Shown piece by piece: positions 2,316-37,945 of a DNA stretch of 37,945 bases. Position 1 is the stretch's first letter, and each line of letters opens with the position of its first letter. The position numbers and the translations under genes were made by a program. Origin of the DNA: a virus (Monodnaviria > Loebvirae > Hofneiviricota > Faserviricetes > Tubulavirales > Inoviridae); IMG/VR virus record IMGVR_UViG_2923312938_000004; one strand, given 5' to 3'. The notes beneath the pieces were generated by a model, which worked only from the letters and a program-made list of their open reading frames with translations, searched no databases and was not told where the DNA came from.

Positions 2316-4191
<1,876 letters not shown>

Positions 4192-4473
4192 ATGAAAAAA
4201 GAAACAAAGCGCGGAGACACAACCGTAAGGATTAACGAAAACAGAAAACTGGAGCTAAAACGAAGAGTGCTGGAAATCGGTAATAAAACAGGTGAGCTAC
4301 TAAAACCATCAGAGATAGTAAACCACTTAATAGACAACTACTTAGATGATGCGGTGAAAGATCTAATAAGCAAAGAAGAACTTAAGAAAAAAAGGCAATG
4401 TGATCCCTTTTCCTGCATTCAGCAGACTACCCGCGAAGGATCGAAAGGATACGGTTTAACTGGAAACCCTTGA
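4192..4473 (+). CDS. Ribbon-helix-helix (RHH) DNA-binding regulator; 93 aa in this copy, 70 aa in copies B-E
   Basis: N-terminus TTVRINENRKLELKRRVLEIGNKTGELLKPSEIVNHLIDNYL fits a beta-strand/helix/helix RHH pattern. Divergent from Rep, like rstR versus rstA in CTXphi. Copy A has an A7 run at 4387-4393 where the other four copies have A8, so the 70-aa form ending KKKKAM is the consensus. Confidence 0.6.
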   Translation: MKKETKRGDTTVRINENRKLELKRRVLEIGNKTGELLKPSEIVNHLIDNYLDDAVKDLISKEELKKKRQCDPFSCIQQTTREGSKGYGLTGNP

Positions 4474-4489
4474 GTTTCCGTTGACTCTA

Positions 4490-4516
4490 CCCCCGTGTTA
4501 CAAGACGGGGGTTTTT
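4490..4516 (+). terminator. Intrinsic terminator downstream of the RHH regulator gene
   Basis: Stem cccccgt / acggggg with an 8-nt loop, followed by ttttt. Confidence 0.6.
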
Positions 4517-4705
4517 CTCCCGGCCTGTAACACATCGCTCTCTGATGTTAATGCAGGCGCTCCGCTCCTCGCAGGTTGTCGTTGTCGGCGTCCTCCTCCC
4601 GTCGTCCTTCTTCGCCTCCAACCTGCTGCGGTGCGGTACGACTGGATTAAGGGCGATTCAACTTCGTTACATGGACATTTAAAAAACAAAAGCATGAGGG
4701 GAAGA

Positions 4706-4879
4706 ATGAACAACTGGAGTGAGATCATATTAGACCTGCTGATGAAGCACATAATAGGTGGCGCTGCGATTGGCGTGGCTATCCTGTTGTTTGCCGGAGT
4801 GATTTTTCCTGTTGCGCTGAAGATAAGGAAGCTCACTGGCAGGAAAAAACAGCGAATAAAACAGAAACTCATCAGTTAA
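4706..4879 (+). CDS. Small membrane protein (57 aa) with polybasic C-terminal tail
   Basis: Strong SD GAGGGGAAG before the ATG at 4706. MNNWSEIILDLLMKHIIGGAAIGVAILLFAGVIFPVALKIRKLTGRKKQRIKQKLIS has one TM helix plus a Lys/Arg-rich tail. Intact in all five copies, whereas the upstream part of the long ORF is frame-broken in copy B. Confidence 0.55.
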   Translation: MNNWSEIILDLLMKHIIGGAAIGVAILLFAGVIFPVALKIRKLTGRKKQRIKQKLIS

Positions 4880-4883
4880 GGCC

Positions 4884-4977
4884 AGTGCGCACAATGACGT
4901 TATGTGTAAAAAGGCCGCTGCGGTGGAGAGTATCGCAGCGGCCTTTTCAACATAACGTGTAACACATTATGCGCACT
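4884..4977. other. Putative attP: inverted pair of dif-like XerC/XerD-arm sequences flanking a hairpin
   Basis: Plus strand 4884-4910 AGTGCGCACAA-TGACG-TTATGTGTAAA. Minus strand of 4945-4977 reads AGTGCGCATAA-TGTGTTACACG-TTATGTTGAAA. Compare E. coli dif GGTGCGCATAA-TGTATA-TTATGTTAAAT (recalled from memory). The two sites form a ~100-bp imperfect palindrome. Confidence 0.6.
4907..4947 (+). terminator. Bidirectional intrinsic terminator hairpin at the centre of the attP palindrome
   Basis: aaaaaa-GGCCGCTGCG-gtggagagtat-CGCAGCGGCC-tttt, 28 nt after the stop of the small membrane-protein gene. Confidence 0.6.
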
Positions 4978-5087
4978 GGCGTTGTGGTAGCTGAATTAAG
5001 GTGTCCGTGTGGGTACACAAACCCGGGAGTAAAAAAAGAAAACGCCTTATAACCTGGGAAAGTTATAAAGCGTCCCGGAAAATCCAG
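4976..5087. repeat. Intergenic direct repeat, copy 1 (~110 bp)
   Basis: ctggcgttgtggtagctgaattaaggtgtccgtgtgggtacac...gaaaacgccttataacctgggaaagttataaagcg...ggaaaatccag. About 88 percent identical by eye to 5286-5392. Confidence 0.7.
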
Positions 5088-5285
5088 AAATGGATACAAT
5101 GAAATATCCGTCTCAGTCAACGTAATTTACGTCTCAATCAACGTGATATACGGCCTTAACTGACATTATGTGTCTACTACCTACTCACCCTCACATAGAT
5201 GAGCAGCAAGACTATAACAAGTAAACATTACGGCGGATAACACCTGCAGACCTCTTGTTGAAAATTCCGGCTCAAAAGACGGCCT

Positions 5286-5392
5286 CTGGCGTTGTGATGG
5301 CTGAATTGAGATGTTCGTGTGGGTACACCGGGAAGTAAAAAAGAAAACGCCCTATAACCTGGGAAAGTTATAAGGCGCACTGGAAAATCCAG
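5286..5392. repeat. Intergenic direct repeat, copy 2 (~107 bp)
   Basis: ctggcgttgtgatggctgaattgagatgttcgtgtgggtacac...gaaaacgccctataacctgggaaagttataaggcg...ggaaaatccag. Partner of 4976-5087; part of a larger diverged ~300-bp duplication. Confidence 0.7.
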
Positions 5393-5775
5393 GTAATTAT
5401 GGGATGTACGCGTCTAAACCAACGTTATGTCCGCCTCAGTATGTGCCAGTCCACTGCCACATAACAGAGTGCGCAAATTGTAACGAGTAAAACATTATCG
5501 CCGATAACACATCAGGACCTCTGTTTGAAAATTCCGGCTCAAAAAGACGGCCTGTCAGTCATCAATTCCATCGAACGGCTTCATCAATGACTGTCCGACT
5601 CCCGTCTTGCGCCGCTCGTCTCGCTGGCTGCCCGCTAAAAGGCGGTCTGGCAGGCGGCGCGTTGCGCTGTTTCCTGCTGCTCTGTCATCTCTCCCCGGTT
5701 TCGGCGGGCTGACATCTGCGTCACATGAAACTTCATCATGCCGCCTTACATGTCCTGACGGACATCATCACACAC

Positions 5776-6996
5776 TCAGACCCGCCGGGCCTGAAGAACG
5801 ACGATGATATCGGTTTTCGCACGTTCATCAGAGTCTGAACCAAACACATCCGGCAGAAATGAAAGCCCTGTCCGCGCCTTTGATGTCTTGTTCTCCGCCA
5901 GTCCGCCCAGCACAATGATATCACCGTCATTCAGACTCACCGACGTGGACACCTCGCGCTTTATCAGCGTTGGCGTGTTATTCACCCCCGTATCCGTTTT
6001 TGCAAAGTTACTCAGCTGCTGAACGATATCCAGACCTATCACATCCTGCGTCACGGTGGGTTTTACCCGAAAAATAGCCCCGCTGCTGCGGTATTCCACG
6101 GACTGCACCGGAACCTTATCCTGCCATGACACTGATGACAGAACCGGCACATCAGACCCCACGCTGAAAACCGCCTCCTTACCGGAGATAACGCGCAGAC
6201 GTGGCGAACTGACCACCTGAAAACGGCTGTCGGTCCTGAATAACTCATACATTGCATCAACAGACCCCGTGCTGAGGCGAATAAAGTTATCCAGCCCCGA
6301 TGCGCTGCTCATGGTGATACTGAAACGACCGGATAAAAGCTCTGCGGCCAGCGCCAGACCTGAACCGTTACGCTCACTGGTCTGGACCTCAAACACATAC
6401 CCGGCAACCGAAACCTCCTGTGCCCTGACGTCAATCTGCGGCAGAAGCTGCCGGACAAGCTCAACTTCCCGGGCCGTTCCCCGGAACACAAACACATCCC
6501 CGGATGCACTGATGAACCGGGTACCACTGCTGACCGCCTGCCATGTCTGCTCACCGTTTGCCCCCTGAACCGGCTGTTGTGCGGCCGGAAGCTGACCCAG
6601 ACCGGAAAGCGCCTGATGCAGATACTCCACTGTCCGGTAACGGGGCGTGTAAACAAGGGATTTCAGCGGCTCCTCTGGTGCGGCAGGTGTATGACTGTAA
6701 ATATAATCAACGCCCTTTTTACGGCTTATCCTGATATTCATATTACCGAGATAACGGGTAATAAATTCCCGTTCATCGATATCCGGTGAAATATGCAGCG
6801 TGACGGCCCGCGGGTCATTGACCAGTTCAGGGGCCAGCATGAACGGTGTTTTCAGGACTTCCGTCCAGAGCAGCGTCACCGCATCAGGCAGGCTCATGCG
6901 GTTAATATCCAGTTCCGTCCCGGCTGAAAACGACGGCAGCGGGAATAACAGCGCCATTGCAGGCAGCACCGGGAGAAGTAATTTTCTGATATTCAT
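5776..6996 (-). CDS. Secretin (gIV-like outer-membrane export channel), 406 aa
   Basis: Signal peptide MNIRKLLLPVLPAMALLFPLPSFSA. C-terminus IIVLGGLAENKTSKARTGLSFLPDVFGSDSDERAKTDIIVVLQARRV resembles the conserved secretin/pIV C-terminal block. Last gene of the operon, after gI, as in Ff phages. Confidence 0.75.
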   Translation of the reverse strand: MNIRKLLLPVLPAMALLFPLPSFSAGTELDINRMSLPDAVTLLWTEVLKTPFMLAPELVNDPRAVTLHISPDIDEREFITRYLGNMNIRISRKKGVDYIYSHTPAAPEEPLKSLVYTPRYRTVEYLHQALSGLGQLPAAQQPVQGANGEQTWQAVSSGTRFISASGDVFVFRGTAREVELVRQLLPQIDVRAQEVSVAGYVFEVQTSERNGSGLALAAELLSGRFSITMSSASGLDNFIRLSTGSVDAMYELFRTDSRFQVVSSPRLRVISGKEAVFSVGSDVPVLSSVSWQDKVPVQSVEYRSSGAIFRVKPTVTQDVIGLDIVQQLSNFAKTDTGVNNTPTLIKREVSTSVSLNDGDIIVLGGLAENKTSKARTGLSFLPDVFGSDSDERAKTDIIVVLQARRV

Positions 6997-8631: not shown

Positions 8632-9960
8632 TTACCTACCGGATAATGATTTATCAACCAGGATGACTAATGACACTGCGGTGATGACATAAATAAAAAA
8701 GCGAATAACCTCCCGCAGATAACCGTCATAAATACGACAGACACCTTCCGTGGAGAGATTAAAGGGCATTTCCTCACCCCCGAAAGGCCGGAATGAAAAA
8801 CTTAAATCCAGTGGCACACAGACATCCCTGTTATTGCCGAAGAAGCCCTGAGGAATAATGCCGGAAAAATTAAGCACAGGCACATAATCTTCAATCAGGG
8901 GAATAAGTTCCTGAATCCGGTCCTGTACGCCCTGCTCCACTGAACTTATACCGTTCTCAATAATCCCCTGCATAGTGCTGTTAAACTGCGCCTGAGACGA
9001 AGAGTAGTTTTTATCCGGCTCTGTCAGTGCGCCAAATTTTTCATCAATGCTGTGTAAATATTTCACCTGCCTTTCTGTCATATAATCCATGGTAACAAGG
9101 GTTTTATTCTGAAGTTCAATGTAGCTGCTATGAAAACTGTCAATTTTGTCTCCGATGGCAGGCAGTCCGGCATTCAGCAGATAATATATTTTTCTTCCCC
9201 ACTCATCAGAAAGACCGTCATCCCCGTTTCCGGTGTTATTATCATTGCCGTCACTCCCGGTATTTCCACCACCGGAATTATTACCGCCATCGCTGCCGGA
9301 ATTATTATCTTCACTACCGTTGTTATCTTCCTCATTACCGTTGTCAGGAACAATTTTCCCGTCCTCAATTTTATAACCCTCCCTTAAATAACAGGTGCTG
9401 TTATAAAGGTTCTGCCAGCCGGAACCGTTGGGAGTGCAGGAGTAATATTTTGCGTGAGCGCGCAACTCAGATAAAGGCATAGTTTCCCGCGGGAGATAAT
9501 ATCCTGAAAATGAACCACAGATTAACAGCGGATTATTATCACACTCCTGCCTCCTCAGTGTATCCGCAAGTTCAAGCAAATAGACAGCAGAAACCTGACC
9601 GGATACAGCGTTATCATTATCATCACCGGAACTGTTGTCCCCGTTGCCGCCGGAACTGTTATCCCCGTCACCGCCATCACCATCCGAAGGCTCATAAGCT
9701 GCCACAGGGATCCAGTTAGTAGCGGCGACATCACCTGTTTCACTGCCAACAATCACACCTGTCGCCATATAAATACAGCCATCCACAACAGCATACCATG
9801 TATTATCACTGCGAAACGCCCCGGAAAGTGACCCCTGCAGCGCCGGACGGGAAATACAGGCCTCATCAGACTCCGTTAAATTAAAAGGCGCAAATGTTCT
9901 TGTGAATGACTCAGCAGATGAAAAGAACGGAAGAAATAAAAGCAGAAATAACAGCCGCAT
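8632..9960 (-). CDS. gIII-like adsorption protein (copy B), 442 aa
   Basis: Same as copy A except one residue (GYYLPRE versus GYYPPRE) caused by a G-to-A difference at 9486. Confidence 0.7.
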   Translation of the reverse strand: MRLLFLLLFLPFFSSAESFTRTFAPFNLTESDEACISRPALQGSLSGAFRSDNTWYAVVDGCIYMATGVIVGSETGDVAATNWIPVAAYEPSDGDGGDGDNSSGGNGDNSSGDDNDNAVSGQVSAVYLLELADTLRRQECDNNPLLICGSFSGYYLPRETMPLSELRAHAKYYSCTPNGSGWQNLYNSTCYLREGYKIEDGKIVPDNGNEEDNNGSEDNNSGSDGGNNSGGGNTGSDGNDNNTGNGDDGLSDEWGRKIYYLLNAGLPAIGDKIDSFHSSYIELQNKTLVTMDYMTERQVKYLHSIDEKFGALTEPDKNYSSSQAQFNSTMQGIIENGISSVEQGVQDRIQELIPLIEDYVPVLNFSGIIPQGFFGNNRDVCVPLDLSFSFRPFGGEEMPFNLSTEGVCRIYDGYLREVIRFFIYVITAVSLVILVDKSLSGR

Positions 9961-12973: not shown

Positions 12974-13147
12974 ATGAACAACTGGAGTGAGATCATATTA
13001 GACCTGCTGATGAAGCACATAATAGGTGGCGCTGCGATTGGCGTGGCTATCCTGTTGTTTGCCGGAGTGATTTTTCCTGTTGCGCTGAAGATAAGGAAGC
13101 TCACTGGCAGGAAAAAACAGCGAATAAAACAGAAACTCATCAGTTAA
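12974..13147 (+). CDS. Small membrane protein with polybasic tail (copy B)
   Basis: ATG at 12974 after GAGGGGAAG; identical 57 aa. Confidence 0.55.
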   Translation: MNNWSEIILDLLMKHIIGGAAIGVAILLFAGVIFPVALKIRKLTGRKKQRIKQKLIS

Positions 13148-21235: not shown

Positions 21236-21409
21236 ATGAACAACTGGAGTGAGATCATATTAGACCTGCTGATGAAGCACATAATAGGTGGCGCTGCGAT
21301 TGGCGTGGCTATCCTGTTGTTTGCCGGAGTGATTTTTCCTGTTGCGCTGAAGATAAGGAAGCTCACTGGCAGGAAAAAACAGCGAATAAAACAGAAACTC
21401 ATCAGTTAA
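21236..21409 (+). CDS. Small membrane protein with polybasic tail (copy C)
   Basis: ATG verified at 21236. Confidence 0.55.
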   Translation: MNNWSEIILDLLMKHIIGGAAIGVAILLFAGVIFPVALKIRKLTGRKKQRIKQKLIS

Positions 21410-29501: not shown

Positions 29502-29675
29502 ATGAACAACTGGAGTGAGATCATATTAGACCTGCTGATGAAGCACATAATAGGTGGCGCTGCGATTGGCGTGGCTATCCTGTTGTTTGCCGGAGTGATT
29601 TTTCCTGTTGCGCTGAAGATAAGGAAGCTCACTGGCAGGAAAAAACAGCGAATAAAACAGAAACTCATCAGTTAA
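29502..29675 (+). CDS. Small membrane protein with polybasic tail (copy D)
   Basis: ATG verified at 29502. Confidence 0.55.
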   Translation: MNNWSEIILDLLMKHIIGGAAIGVAILLFAGVIFPVALKIRKLTGRKKQRIKQKLIS

Positions 29676-37771: not shown

Positions 37772-37945
37772 ATGAACAACTGGAGTGAGATCATATTAGA
37801 CCTGCTGATGAAGCACATAATAGGTGGCGCTGCGATTGGCGTGGCTATCCTGTTGTTTGCCGGAGTGATTTTTCCTGTTGCGCTGAAGATAAGGAAGCTC
37901 ACTGGCAGGAAAAAACAGCGAATAAAACAGAAACTCATCAGTTAA
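37772..37945 (+). CDS. Small membrane protein with polybasic tail (copy E)
   Basis: ATG verified at 37772; the stop is the last codon of the window. Confidence 0.55.
   Translation: MNNWSEIILDLLMKHIIGGAAIGVAILLFAGVIFPVALKIRKLTGRKKQRIKQKLIS

Follow-up and report, generated by a model that had tools for sequence, protein, structure and literature searches.

A family of very small, predicted membrane proteins encoded next to the Xer-type attachment site of filamentous prophages of Escherichia coli and Citrobacter

Very small membrane proteins are known from bacteria, plasmids and filamentous phages in several forms. Type I toxins such as Hok, TisB, Fst and TxpA/BsrG have fewer than 60 amino acids (aa) and a single hydrophobic helix, often with a charged tail; they are often borne by prophages, and the ribosome binding site (RBS) of their mRNA is occluded. 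The major coat protein of phage Pf3 is synthesized without a leader and is inserted by YidC in an N-out/C-in orientation; it consists of a short acidic N-tail, one transmembrane (TM) helix and a basic C-terminus. In the Pseudomonas phage Pf4, the 30 aa protein PfsE (PA0721), which is predicted to reside in the inner membrane, binds PilC and thereby prevents superinfection, and it is dispensable for virions (PMC8764522). A previously unannotated peptide of the same phage, PftP4 (PA0726.1), is membrane-anchored and has 33 aa; its toxicity was shown experimentally, it is dispensable for phage production, and its gene is co-transcribed with zot, the end of which it overlaps (PMC11769263). The genes found next to the phage attachment site (attP) of other filamentous phages, i.e. 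YPO2280a and YPO2281 of YpfPhi/CUS-1, h3-h5 of UPphi, and ctxAB of CTXphi, are lineage-specific and have no known homologues (PMC4266046, PMC7307601). Here, we analyzed an open reading frame (ORF) of 57 codons next to the attP of a filamentous prophage that makes up a 37,945-base stretch of DNA (IMG/VR record IMGVR_UViG_2923312938_000004; this whole stretch is called the window), and the protein family to which it belongs.

The window comprises about 4.6 head-to-tail copies of a filamentous prophage unit of about 8.27 kb, and the ORF recurs unchanged along the array:

4706..4879 (ATG at 4706, TAA at 4877-4879, stop included), plus strand: small-protein gene, 57 aa, encoding MNNWSEIILDLLMKHIIGGAAIGVAILLFAGVIFPVALKIRKLTGRKKQRIKQKLIS
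12974..13147, plus strand: identical gene copy in tandem unit 2 (exact match)
21236..21409, plus strand: identical gene copy in tandem unit 3 (exact match)
29502..29675, plus strand: identical gene copy in tandem unit 4 (exact match)
37772..37945, plus strand: identical gene copy in tandem unit 5 (exact match); its stop codon is the end of the window

In RefSeq the product is annotated as the hypothetical protein WP_001409659.1. As judged from alignment and synteny, the 57 aa peptide and its homologues of 42-51 aa represent a previously undescribed family of small proteins, which spans 42-57 aa. Its members share the motif (I/V)(L/M)DLL(M/I)K(H/Y), a G-x3-G pattern, a proline near the inner end of the TM segment, and a position abutting attP. 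Profile and DNA searches added further subfamilies of 42-51 aa from gut metagenomes, from IncF plasmids, and from a tandem prophage on a Citrobacter youngae plasmid.

By length, such an ORF could have arisen by chance: the first 12 kb of the window contain 116 ORFs of at least 30 aa. The reality of the gene rests on comparative evidence. In prophages of the O166:H15 type, rstR is 100% identical to that of the window (the RstR/RstA module is nearly identical) and attP is about 95% identical, while the DNA between them is only 47% identical. At the same position within this divergent stretch lies an unannotated 46 aa ORF, MHDMILDLLMKYLIAGSLFGMFLFSVITIVLPIVLRAHNKINRSND. The 57 aa protein and the 46 aa homologue (cM8a variant) matched in BLASTP with an E-value of 1e-9. 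Between the two types, the identity was 0.45 at the first codon position, 0.65-0.70 at the second, and 0.23-0.30, and thus random, at the third. The proportion of differing sites was about 0.8 for synonymous (pS) and about 0.45 for nonsynonymous sites (pN), so that synonymous sites are saturated; in the seven codons of ILDLLMK, nearly all synonymous positions have been changed. The amino acid motif, the TM character and the ORF boundaries have persisted despite the randomized third positions, and BLOSUM62 scores between the types were 60-73 in the sense frame versus 20-33 in the open antisense frame.

Within types, dN/dS values were 0.35-0.6 and the replacements were conservative. The 57 aa type contained 9 conservative replacements and 7 synonymous changes; however, 7 of the 16 substitutions are synonymous in the sense frame and likewise in the open antisense frame, so within-type values cannot separate the two frames and the comparison between types is needed. 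Among the copies examined, the ORF is open in all five subfamilies apart from two disrupted copies, one in a record in which the phage genes are otherwise annotated as short fragments and one a variant with a C-terminal frameshift. Taken from these sequence comparisons, ORF 4706-4879 is very probably a real protein-coding gene under selection.

It is highly improbable that the ORF is not a gene, i.e. that the sequence is retained for reasons at the DNA level (as attP flank, packaging signal or minus-strand origin) or that the antisense frame is the true coding frame: such a reading could draw on the equal synonymous shares, on a conservation within the 57 aa type that is no higher than that of the flanking non-coding block, on the fruitless promoter search upstream, and on the 46 aa homologues not having been called by the Prokaryotic Genome Annotation Pipeline (PGAP), but it is contradicted by the pattern between types, including a sense score two to three times the antisense score, by the five open subfamilies, and by an unremarkable single-stranded DNA (ssDNA) structure of the region in the packaged strand (z = +0.87). 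Three specific candidates were rejected: a 132 aa frame starting at TTG 4481, which is broken by indels in relatives; the antisense ORFs 4498-4872 and 4730-4894, which are not conserved between types; and a cis-acting ssDNA structure beneath the ORF, on the basis of the same z-score.

Outside of the family no relative was found. Searches with the single sequence returned only E. coli relatives with at least 88% identity, or only the cluster of the query itself. In 5.8 billion clusters/1.84 billion representatives there was no match beyond the family, and neither the phages in GenBank nor one genome per GTDB species contained a match to the 57 aa ORF. Pfam, PHROGs, PADLOC and NCBIfam yielded nothing above threshold; the weaker matches were confined to the hydrophobic stretch, among them NCBIfam Fst (E-value 0.039; 13.8 bits versus a cutoff of 26). 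The preliminary description of the locus, which had been made from the sequence alone, had placed the ORF outside the canonical Ff gene set, and the lack of any Pfam, PHROG, PADLOC or NCBIfam family agrees with this; the remote-homology search that it had proposed as a check led nowhere beyond the family.

The 57 aa peptide contains one hydrophobic segment, residues 16-38, with a mean Kyte-Doolittle value of 2.6, and thus has the size and architecture of a small toxin (fewer than 60 aa, hydrophobic, single TM segment). It is composed of the juxtamembrane motif IILDLLMKHII, the TM segment with G19-x3-G23 and P35, and the basic tail. The net charges of the N- and C-terminal flanks are -1 and +9, respectively. 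AlphaFold2 modeled a single continuous helix (predicted local distance difference test, pLDDT, 76). An N-out/C-in topology is predicted, because the slightly acidic N-terminus of 15 residues and the basic C-tail would be arranged in this way by the positive-inside rule.

In the family alignment, D10, L11, L12, K14, G19, G23 and P35 are invariant or nearly so; conserved residues are broken in two single variants, D10 in P0012 and G19 in P0013. The conserved residues lie at the outer-leaflet end of the TM helix and within it, and none lies in the tail. The net charge of the C-terminal flank is +9 in the window, +2 or +3 in the 46 aa types, +1 in the 50 aa type, and 0 in the Citrobacter type. Codon R50 (CGA) is aligned with the TGA stop codon of the 46 aa type, and therefore the last eight residues are a lineage-specific extension. 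The polybasic tail, on which the preliminary description had put its emphasis and which is the most eye-catching feature of the peptide, was thus shown not to be its conserved part; because it is not conserved, it is probably a topology anchor and not the active part. The pattern of conservation points to a specific contact with another membrane protein, either between helices or at the outer leaflet, and not to DNA binding or generic membrane damage.

The attP of the unit consists of the following elements:

4884..4910, plus strand: dif-like attP arm 1, composed of XerC-like AGTGCGCACAA, the spacer TGACG and XerD-like TTATGTGTAAA
4909..4947, either strand: perfect 14-bp GC-rich stem-loop between the attP arms, with T-runs on both strands (17-bp stem as RNA)
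4945..4977, minus strand: dif-like attP arm 2, composed of AGTGCGCATAA, an 11-nt spacer and TTATGTTGAAA
4881..4980, minus strand: entire attP, folded as a forked hairpin in the packaged strand (DNA fold -43.7 kcal/mol, z = -11.0)

The stop codon of the small gene is followed by GGCC and then by the XerC-like sequence (4884-4894), which is identical to the XerC arm of E. coli dif at 9 of 11 positions; the distance of 4 nt given in the preliminary description is thus correct. The distance between stop codon and XerC arm is 4-12 nt in every subfamily, including one with a different attP sequence, and in intact elements the small gene is the last gene on the repressor strand, before the XerC-type arm. 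With two inverted dif-like sites around a 14-bp stem, both the fold and the location of the prophage at dif are those of a CTXphi-type attP, and we infer that integration proceeds from ssDNA. In hairpin-type attP sites the central stem-loop occupies the expected position of the terminator of the small gene; the stem-loop at 4909..4947 remained below the loop and T-run criteria of the terminator scanner, but it is likely to terminate the small gene and, on the other strand, to serve as a backstop for the structural operon. In strain E24377A, the junction between prophage and host is at about 4976, within arm 2. DNA with 99.9-100% identity (the surroundings of the ORF and Zot-secretin) is found at dif beside hipBA in enterotoxigenic E. 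coli (ETEC) and other E. coli (503440, E24377A, TW10573); such near-identical prophages at dif are often in tandem, with hipA as the neighboring gene. None of the deposited phage genomes matched the unit.

The 57 aa gene and the Zot plus secretin module were found in the same 21 of 5426 complete E. coli genomes, with up to 10 gene copies per genome. These 21 genomes contain three unrelated replication/immunity modules: an RstA/RstR-like module, a gII-like module with a single-stranded DNA-binding protein (SSB) and a 162 aa helix-turn-helix (HTH) protein, and a module with a gpA-like endonuclease. Irrespective of the module, the gene always has the orientation of the regulator, and no other gene lies between it and attP. 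This slot is also filled by homologues in a second structural lineage (the O166:H15 type, called module B), in a metagenomic inovirus of 8.3 kb, in a 3,663-bp element of E. coli cM8a, and in the C. youngae inovirus, whose 51 aa homologue ends 5 nt before attP. The family has been found only in filamentous prophages of E. coli and Citrobacter that integrate by Xer at dif-type sites, one satellite-like element, and some plasmid remnants.

The cM8a element (L016, chromosomal dif region) is a unit with at least four tandem repeats that encodes a Rep protein (II/X family), SSB, an 87 aa ORF, a 201 aa protein with several HTH motifs, a 61 aa RstR-like protein and the 46 aa small protein, followed by attP. 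The 3,663-bp unit contains no morphogenesis genes and thus has the appearance of a filamentous satellite of the kind of RS1 or TLC. The part it has in common with a full phage is just a CU-rich block, the ORF and the attP module.

Module B structural genes were also found between ybiB and hcxB, beside a gene for an IS110-family transposase, in 13 genomes. The two that were inspected (Z0117EC0005 and E200139) lack the plus-strand genes, including the small gene, and have no dif-type attP; for the other 11, the same was deduced from search counts. In effect, the virion genes are unchanged, and the integration module has been exchanged for another. Because these relatives have the full module B structural set without the small gene, the gene appears to be accessory, dispensable for virion formation, and tightly linked to the lysogeny-side/attP module. 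The preliminary description had proposed an accessory gene in a cargo slot on the strand opposite the structural operon. The strand assignment is correct (plus, versus minus for Rep, ssb, coat, Zot and secretin genes), the gene is indeed missing from IS110-integrating relatives and from CUS-1, and related phages carry variable cargo next to attP (PMC4266046; PMC7307601). A loose cargo gene, however, is not what was found: it is fixed in 21 of 21 genomes with the structural module, and its synteny with attP extends over five subfamilies.

Several sequence features upstream of the gene bear on its expression:

4696..4705, plus strand: Shine-Dalgarno (SD) region GAGGGGAAGA, anti-SD duplex -8.5 kcal/mol
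4554..4640, plus strand: conserved CU-rich block upstream of the small gene, kept together with ORF and attP behind differing replication modules
4489..4512, plus strand: terminator-like hairpin after the RstR-like repressor gene, separating it from the small gene

The SD motif had been described as the strongest in the unit, and this is true by a marginal lead: among 12 genes with 14 candidate starts, all other anti-SD duplexes had -7.4 kcal/mol or weaker. In the SD region of the remaining 57 aa subtypes, AAGGGGAAGA is retained. Positions 4606-4618 of the CU-rich block (CCTTCTTCGCCTC) are predicted to pair with the SD motif and the AUG in a long leader. Most lineages have kept the block ahead of the small gene; it is missing from the Citrobacter relative and is therefore not obligatory. 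On the strand antisense to the block, an identical arginine-rich ORF of 26 aa, MKKIRGGGRRNASRTRPQGRGRERLP, was observed at L013:9461-9541 and L016:8863-8943 (minus strand). In the minus strand of the window, no promoter-like site for an antisense RNA was found between 4473 and 5000, although weak promoters could escape the scan, and Rfam yielded no family at an E-value of 1 or below other than chance hairpin matches.

What might be the function of such a peptide? Genes for lysogenic conversion and exclusion commonly adjoin att sites. The explanation that we favor, tentatively and by analogy, is that the peptide is a lysogeny-side inner-membrane peptide that hinders an envelope machine used for entry or traffic of filamentous phages, i.e. 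that it mediates superinfection exclusion. This explanation is favored because of the strand, the address at attP, the conservation of a kind expected for a binding partner, a neighboring gene with a TolA domain, and the precedent of PfsE. The peptide would be inserted without a signal peptide, like the Pf3 coat protein in a YidC-type manner, and would act within the inner membrane by means of the (I/V)(L/M)DLL(M/I)K(H/Y) motif and the GxxxG-type helix. It would bind a host or phage envelope machine, and the entry of further filamentous phages would be blocked, as in the case of PfsE in Pf4; the long polybasic tail of the 57 aa subtype would anchor the topology and would not be the effector. 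In the gpA-type relatives (L006:8483-8848 and L007:8483-8848), the TolA-domain gene directly precedes the small gene on that strand. Its product of 121 aa carries a Sec signal peptide together with a TolA C-terminal domain (PF06519, E-value 2.4e-13) and is plausible as a periplasmic decoy for the phage protein g3p, which would make it a candidate for superinfection exclusion.

Several observations weigh against superinfection exclusion. The support from the TolA-domain neighbor is circumstantial, and the sequence searches revealed no similarity to PfsE or to any other characterized protein. The co-variation of the gene with the structural module could be mere physical linkage across attP. The small gene is retained in the satellite-like cM8a element, which lacks an entry protein, and exclusion offers no obvious explanation for this. 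CUS-1 in UTI89 has the same attP hairpin without the small gene, and genes for 140 aa and 369 aa proteins are in the slot; an attP sequence like that of the window occurs in 928 of 5426 E. coli genomes, CUS-1 among them, and at 484 places on plasmids. Expression signals are also not as expected: no sigma-70-like promoter with a score of at least 9 of 12 was found directly upstream of the gene in three subtypes, in three 57 aa subtypes base pairing within long transcripts is predicted to hide the SD motif and the AUG (probability of the SD motif being unpaired about 0.01), and the 46 aa types lack an SD motif entirely and have an open, A-rich leader.

The main rival to exclusion is a toxin-like role. 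The peptide would then damage the membrane, in the manner of a type I toxin or PftP4; it would be translationally silent and, upon de-repression, would kill or arrest the cell, and it would serve Xer-integrated arrays and satellites as an addiction or abortive function. Size and architecture agree with this idea, and the predicted sequestration of SD motif and AUG by the upstream CU-rich tract in three 57 aa subtypes resembles the inert primary transcripts of type I toxins. The CU-rich tract is, however, missing in the Citrobacter relative, and the 46 aa types have no SD motif that could be sequestered. An intact ORF in the satellite-like element and in plasmid remnants surrounded by insertion sequences (IS), as well as the association with dif-type integration and not with structural genes, speak for a toxin-like role; the tolerance of up to 10 copies per genome speaks against it. 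Pf4 offers a precedent with its toxic membrane peptide of 33 aa (PMC11769263). The weak match to Fst mentioned above is confined to the hydrophobic stretch, and none of the curated toxin models matched (Fst was below its cutoff, PADLOC was empty). Furthermore, neither an antisense promoter nor a known small RNA was detectable, and the conserved polar motif (D10, K14) together with GxxxG suggests a defined partner instead of generic damage. We regard a toxin as unlikely. The resemblance to small toxins or exclusion peptides noted in the preliminary description lies in the architecture; neither homology nor a detectable antisense partner was found.

Considerably less probable is a life-cycle factor coupled to attP, either a membrane-anchored peptide the basic tail of which would bind the ssDNA of the folded attP or packaging hairpin and help to initiate assembly or to bring about XerC integration, or one which would shield the array from excision by FtsK/XerD. 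Coat and tip proteins of inoviruses that contact DNA have an acidic N-terminus, a TM segment and a basic C-terminus, and the peptide has the same layout; yet its basic tail is not conserved and has a net charge of 0 in the Citrobacter type. In five subfamilies, also in the one with a different attP sequence, the gene borders on the XerC arm without exception, it is found only in elements with a dif-type attP, and it was kept in the satellite-like element that shares little else with a full phage. Against such a factor, CUS-1-type phages have the same attP without the gene, the gene is on the strand opposite the morphogenesis genes, the unit already contains small ORFs similar to g7/g9, and the IS110-type relatives with their module B structural set and without the gene argue against a role in the virion. 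The chances are slimmer still for a more specific version, in which the peptide is a dedicated partner of Xer-type attP, i.e. a membrane factor that either promotes or stabilizes the XerC integration of attP in its folded, single-stranded form or protects tandem arrays against FtsK/XerD excision; this would account for a stop codon that borders on the XerC arm in all subfamilies and for the loss of the gene upon IS110-type integration. A coat protein paralogue was rejected, in view of the opposite strand, the position, the absence from IS110-type relatives with module B structural genes, and the lack of a coat match in PHROG or Pfam.

The remaining genes of the unit follow a common organization. 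The minus strand encodes a Rep_trans (RstA-like) initiator, an ssb-like gene, small hydrophobic ORFs, g8-, g3- and g6-like genes, Zot and the secretin; on the plus strand, the small gene is preceded by the regulator:

4192..4473, plus strand: RstR-like regulator gene, on the same strand as the small gene; the RefSeq version has 70 aa and ends at window position 4404

In every copy in the window the RstR-like ORF has 94 aa, versus 70-71 aa in RefSeq genomes (ending with KKKKAM and the stop codon). The longer frame is probably due to one A fewer in the A-run at 4387-4404, a systematic homopolymer error. The tandem copies in the window differ from one another at 12 positions, and because nearly all of these are homopolymer-length indels of 1 nt, the differences point to long-read sequencing errors and not to true variation. 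The regulator (4189-4473; L032:5221-5415) crosses genera: the DNA identity with rstR of V. cholerae CTXphi/pre-CTX and of the V. anguillarum VAI phages is about 70%, and the proteins are clear homologues. That the small gene belongs to an ancestral RstR module was rejected, as Vibrio VAI1 has an RstR homologue and no such ORF; membership in the UPphi group was also rejected, because that group is IKe/I2-2-like. On the other side of attP, window positions 4976-5545 contain direct repeats of about 305 bp (families D1-D4) with terminator-like hairpins on the minus strand (5378-5347 and 5076-5039) and additional dif-like fragments (at about 5161, 5364-5383 and 5468-5498). This region may be a packaging signal or may contain relics of older integrations.

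Plasmids contributed three further observations. The Citrobacter relative is a tandem pair of a related inovirus on the 363-kb IncHI1B/FIB plasmid pCY-CTXM-15 of C. youngae (L035, OV141394.1), presumably at the Xer site of the plasmid. Two different plasmid-borne remnants of the small gene (L004:1-1981 with 9010-9183, and L015:1-4539 with 6038-6190) lie among IS debris, a few kb from type IV pilus gene clusters; this proximity may be a coincidence but deserves attention, as the target of PfsE is a pilus platform protein. A pseudogene fragment of the phage secretin, with a length of up to 648 bp and an identity of 97-99.7%, was found among IS elements on plasmids of about 100 kb in 12 of the 21 strains with the phage (L031:7001-7648; H181-H192).

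Among pathogenic E. coli (here ETEC, e.g. E24377A), dif-integrating filamentous prophages are common, and their accessory genes are almost wholly uncharacterized. The present analysis turns a "hypothetical protein" and several unannotated ORFs into a defined family with a conserved motif, a fixed genomic address, and a clear pattern of presence and absence. Should the peptide indeed block superinfection or affect an envelope machine, enterobacteria would have a counterpart of PfsE, with consequences for the spread of phages and for the function of pili or Tol in ETEC. A tie to Xer recombination would make the peptide a new kind of accessory factor for Xer-integrating mobile elements. The findings so far contradict no expectation for prophage accessory genes.

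With the type I toxins, the peptide shares its size, the single hydrophobic helix, the charged tail and the location on a prophage; occlusion of the RBS is predicted for the 57 aa subtypes. It differs from them in that an antisense RNA gene was not detected by promoter scan and Rfam, the score for Fst does not reach the cutoff, a polar juxtamembrane motif is conserved in the family, and RBS occlusion is not conserved across the subfamilies. The Pf3 coat protein has a similar length and layout and also lacks a signal peptide, and it is a good model for the membrane insertion of the peptide; however, the gene is not a coat gene: neither its strand nor its position fits, the unit has a g8-like gene besides, and the IS110-type relatives with a full module B structural set lack it. 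The accessory ORFs of YpfPhi/CUS-1, UPphi and CTXphi share this slot, with regulatory genes on one side and the Xer site on the other, but they are larger, unrelated, and variable among close relatives, whereas the gene of the window is tiny and belongs to a family that is conserved across several mosaic phage lineages.

The two Pf4 peptides are comparable in other respects. PftP4 is likewise a tiny, membrane-anchored inovirus peptide that is not needed for phage production; its position and strand are different. PfsE is also a very small inovirus membrane peptide that is not required to build virions. Nevertheless, there is no sequence similarity, the YxWGW motif of PfsE (PMC8764522) is absent from the window peptide, and pfsE is located among the capsid genes on the structural strand, in contrast to the small gene on the repressor strand beside attP. 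Compared with all of these systems, what is new is a partly unannotated family of small proteins with an unusually strict synteny to the Xer site.

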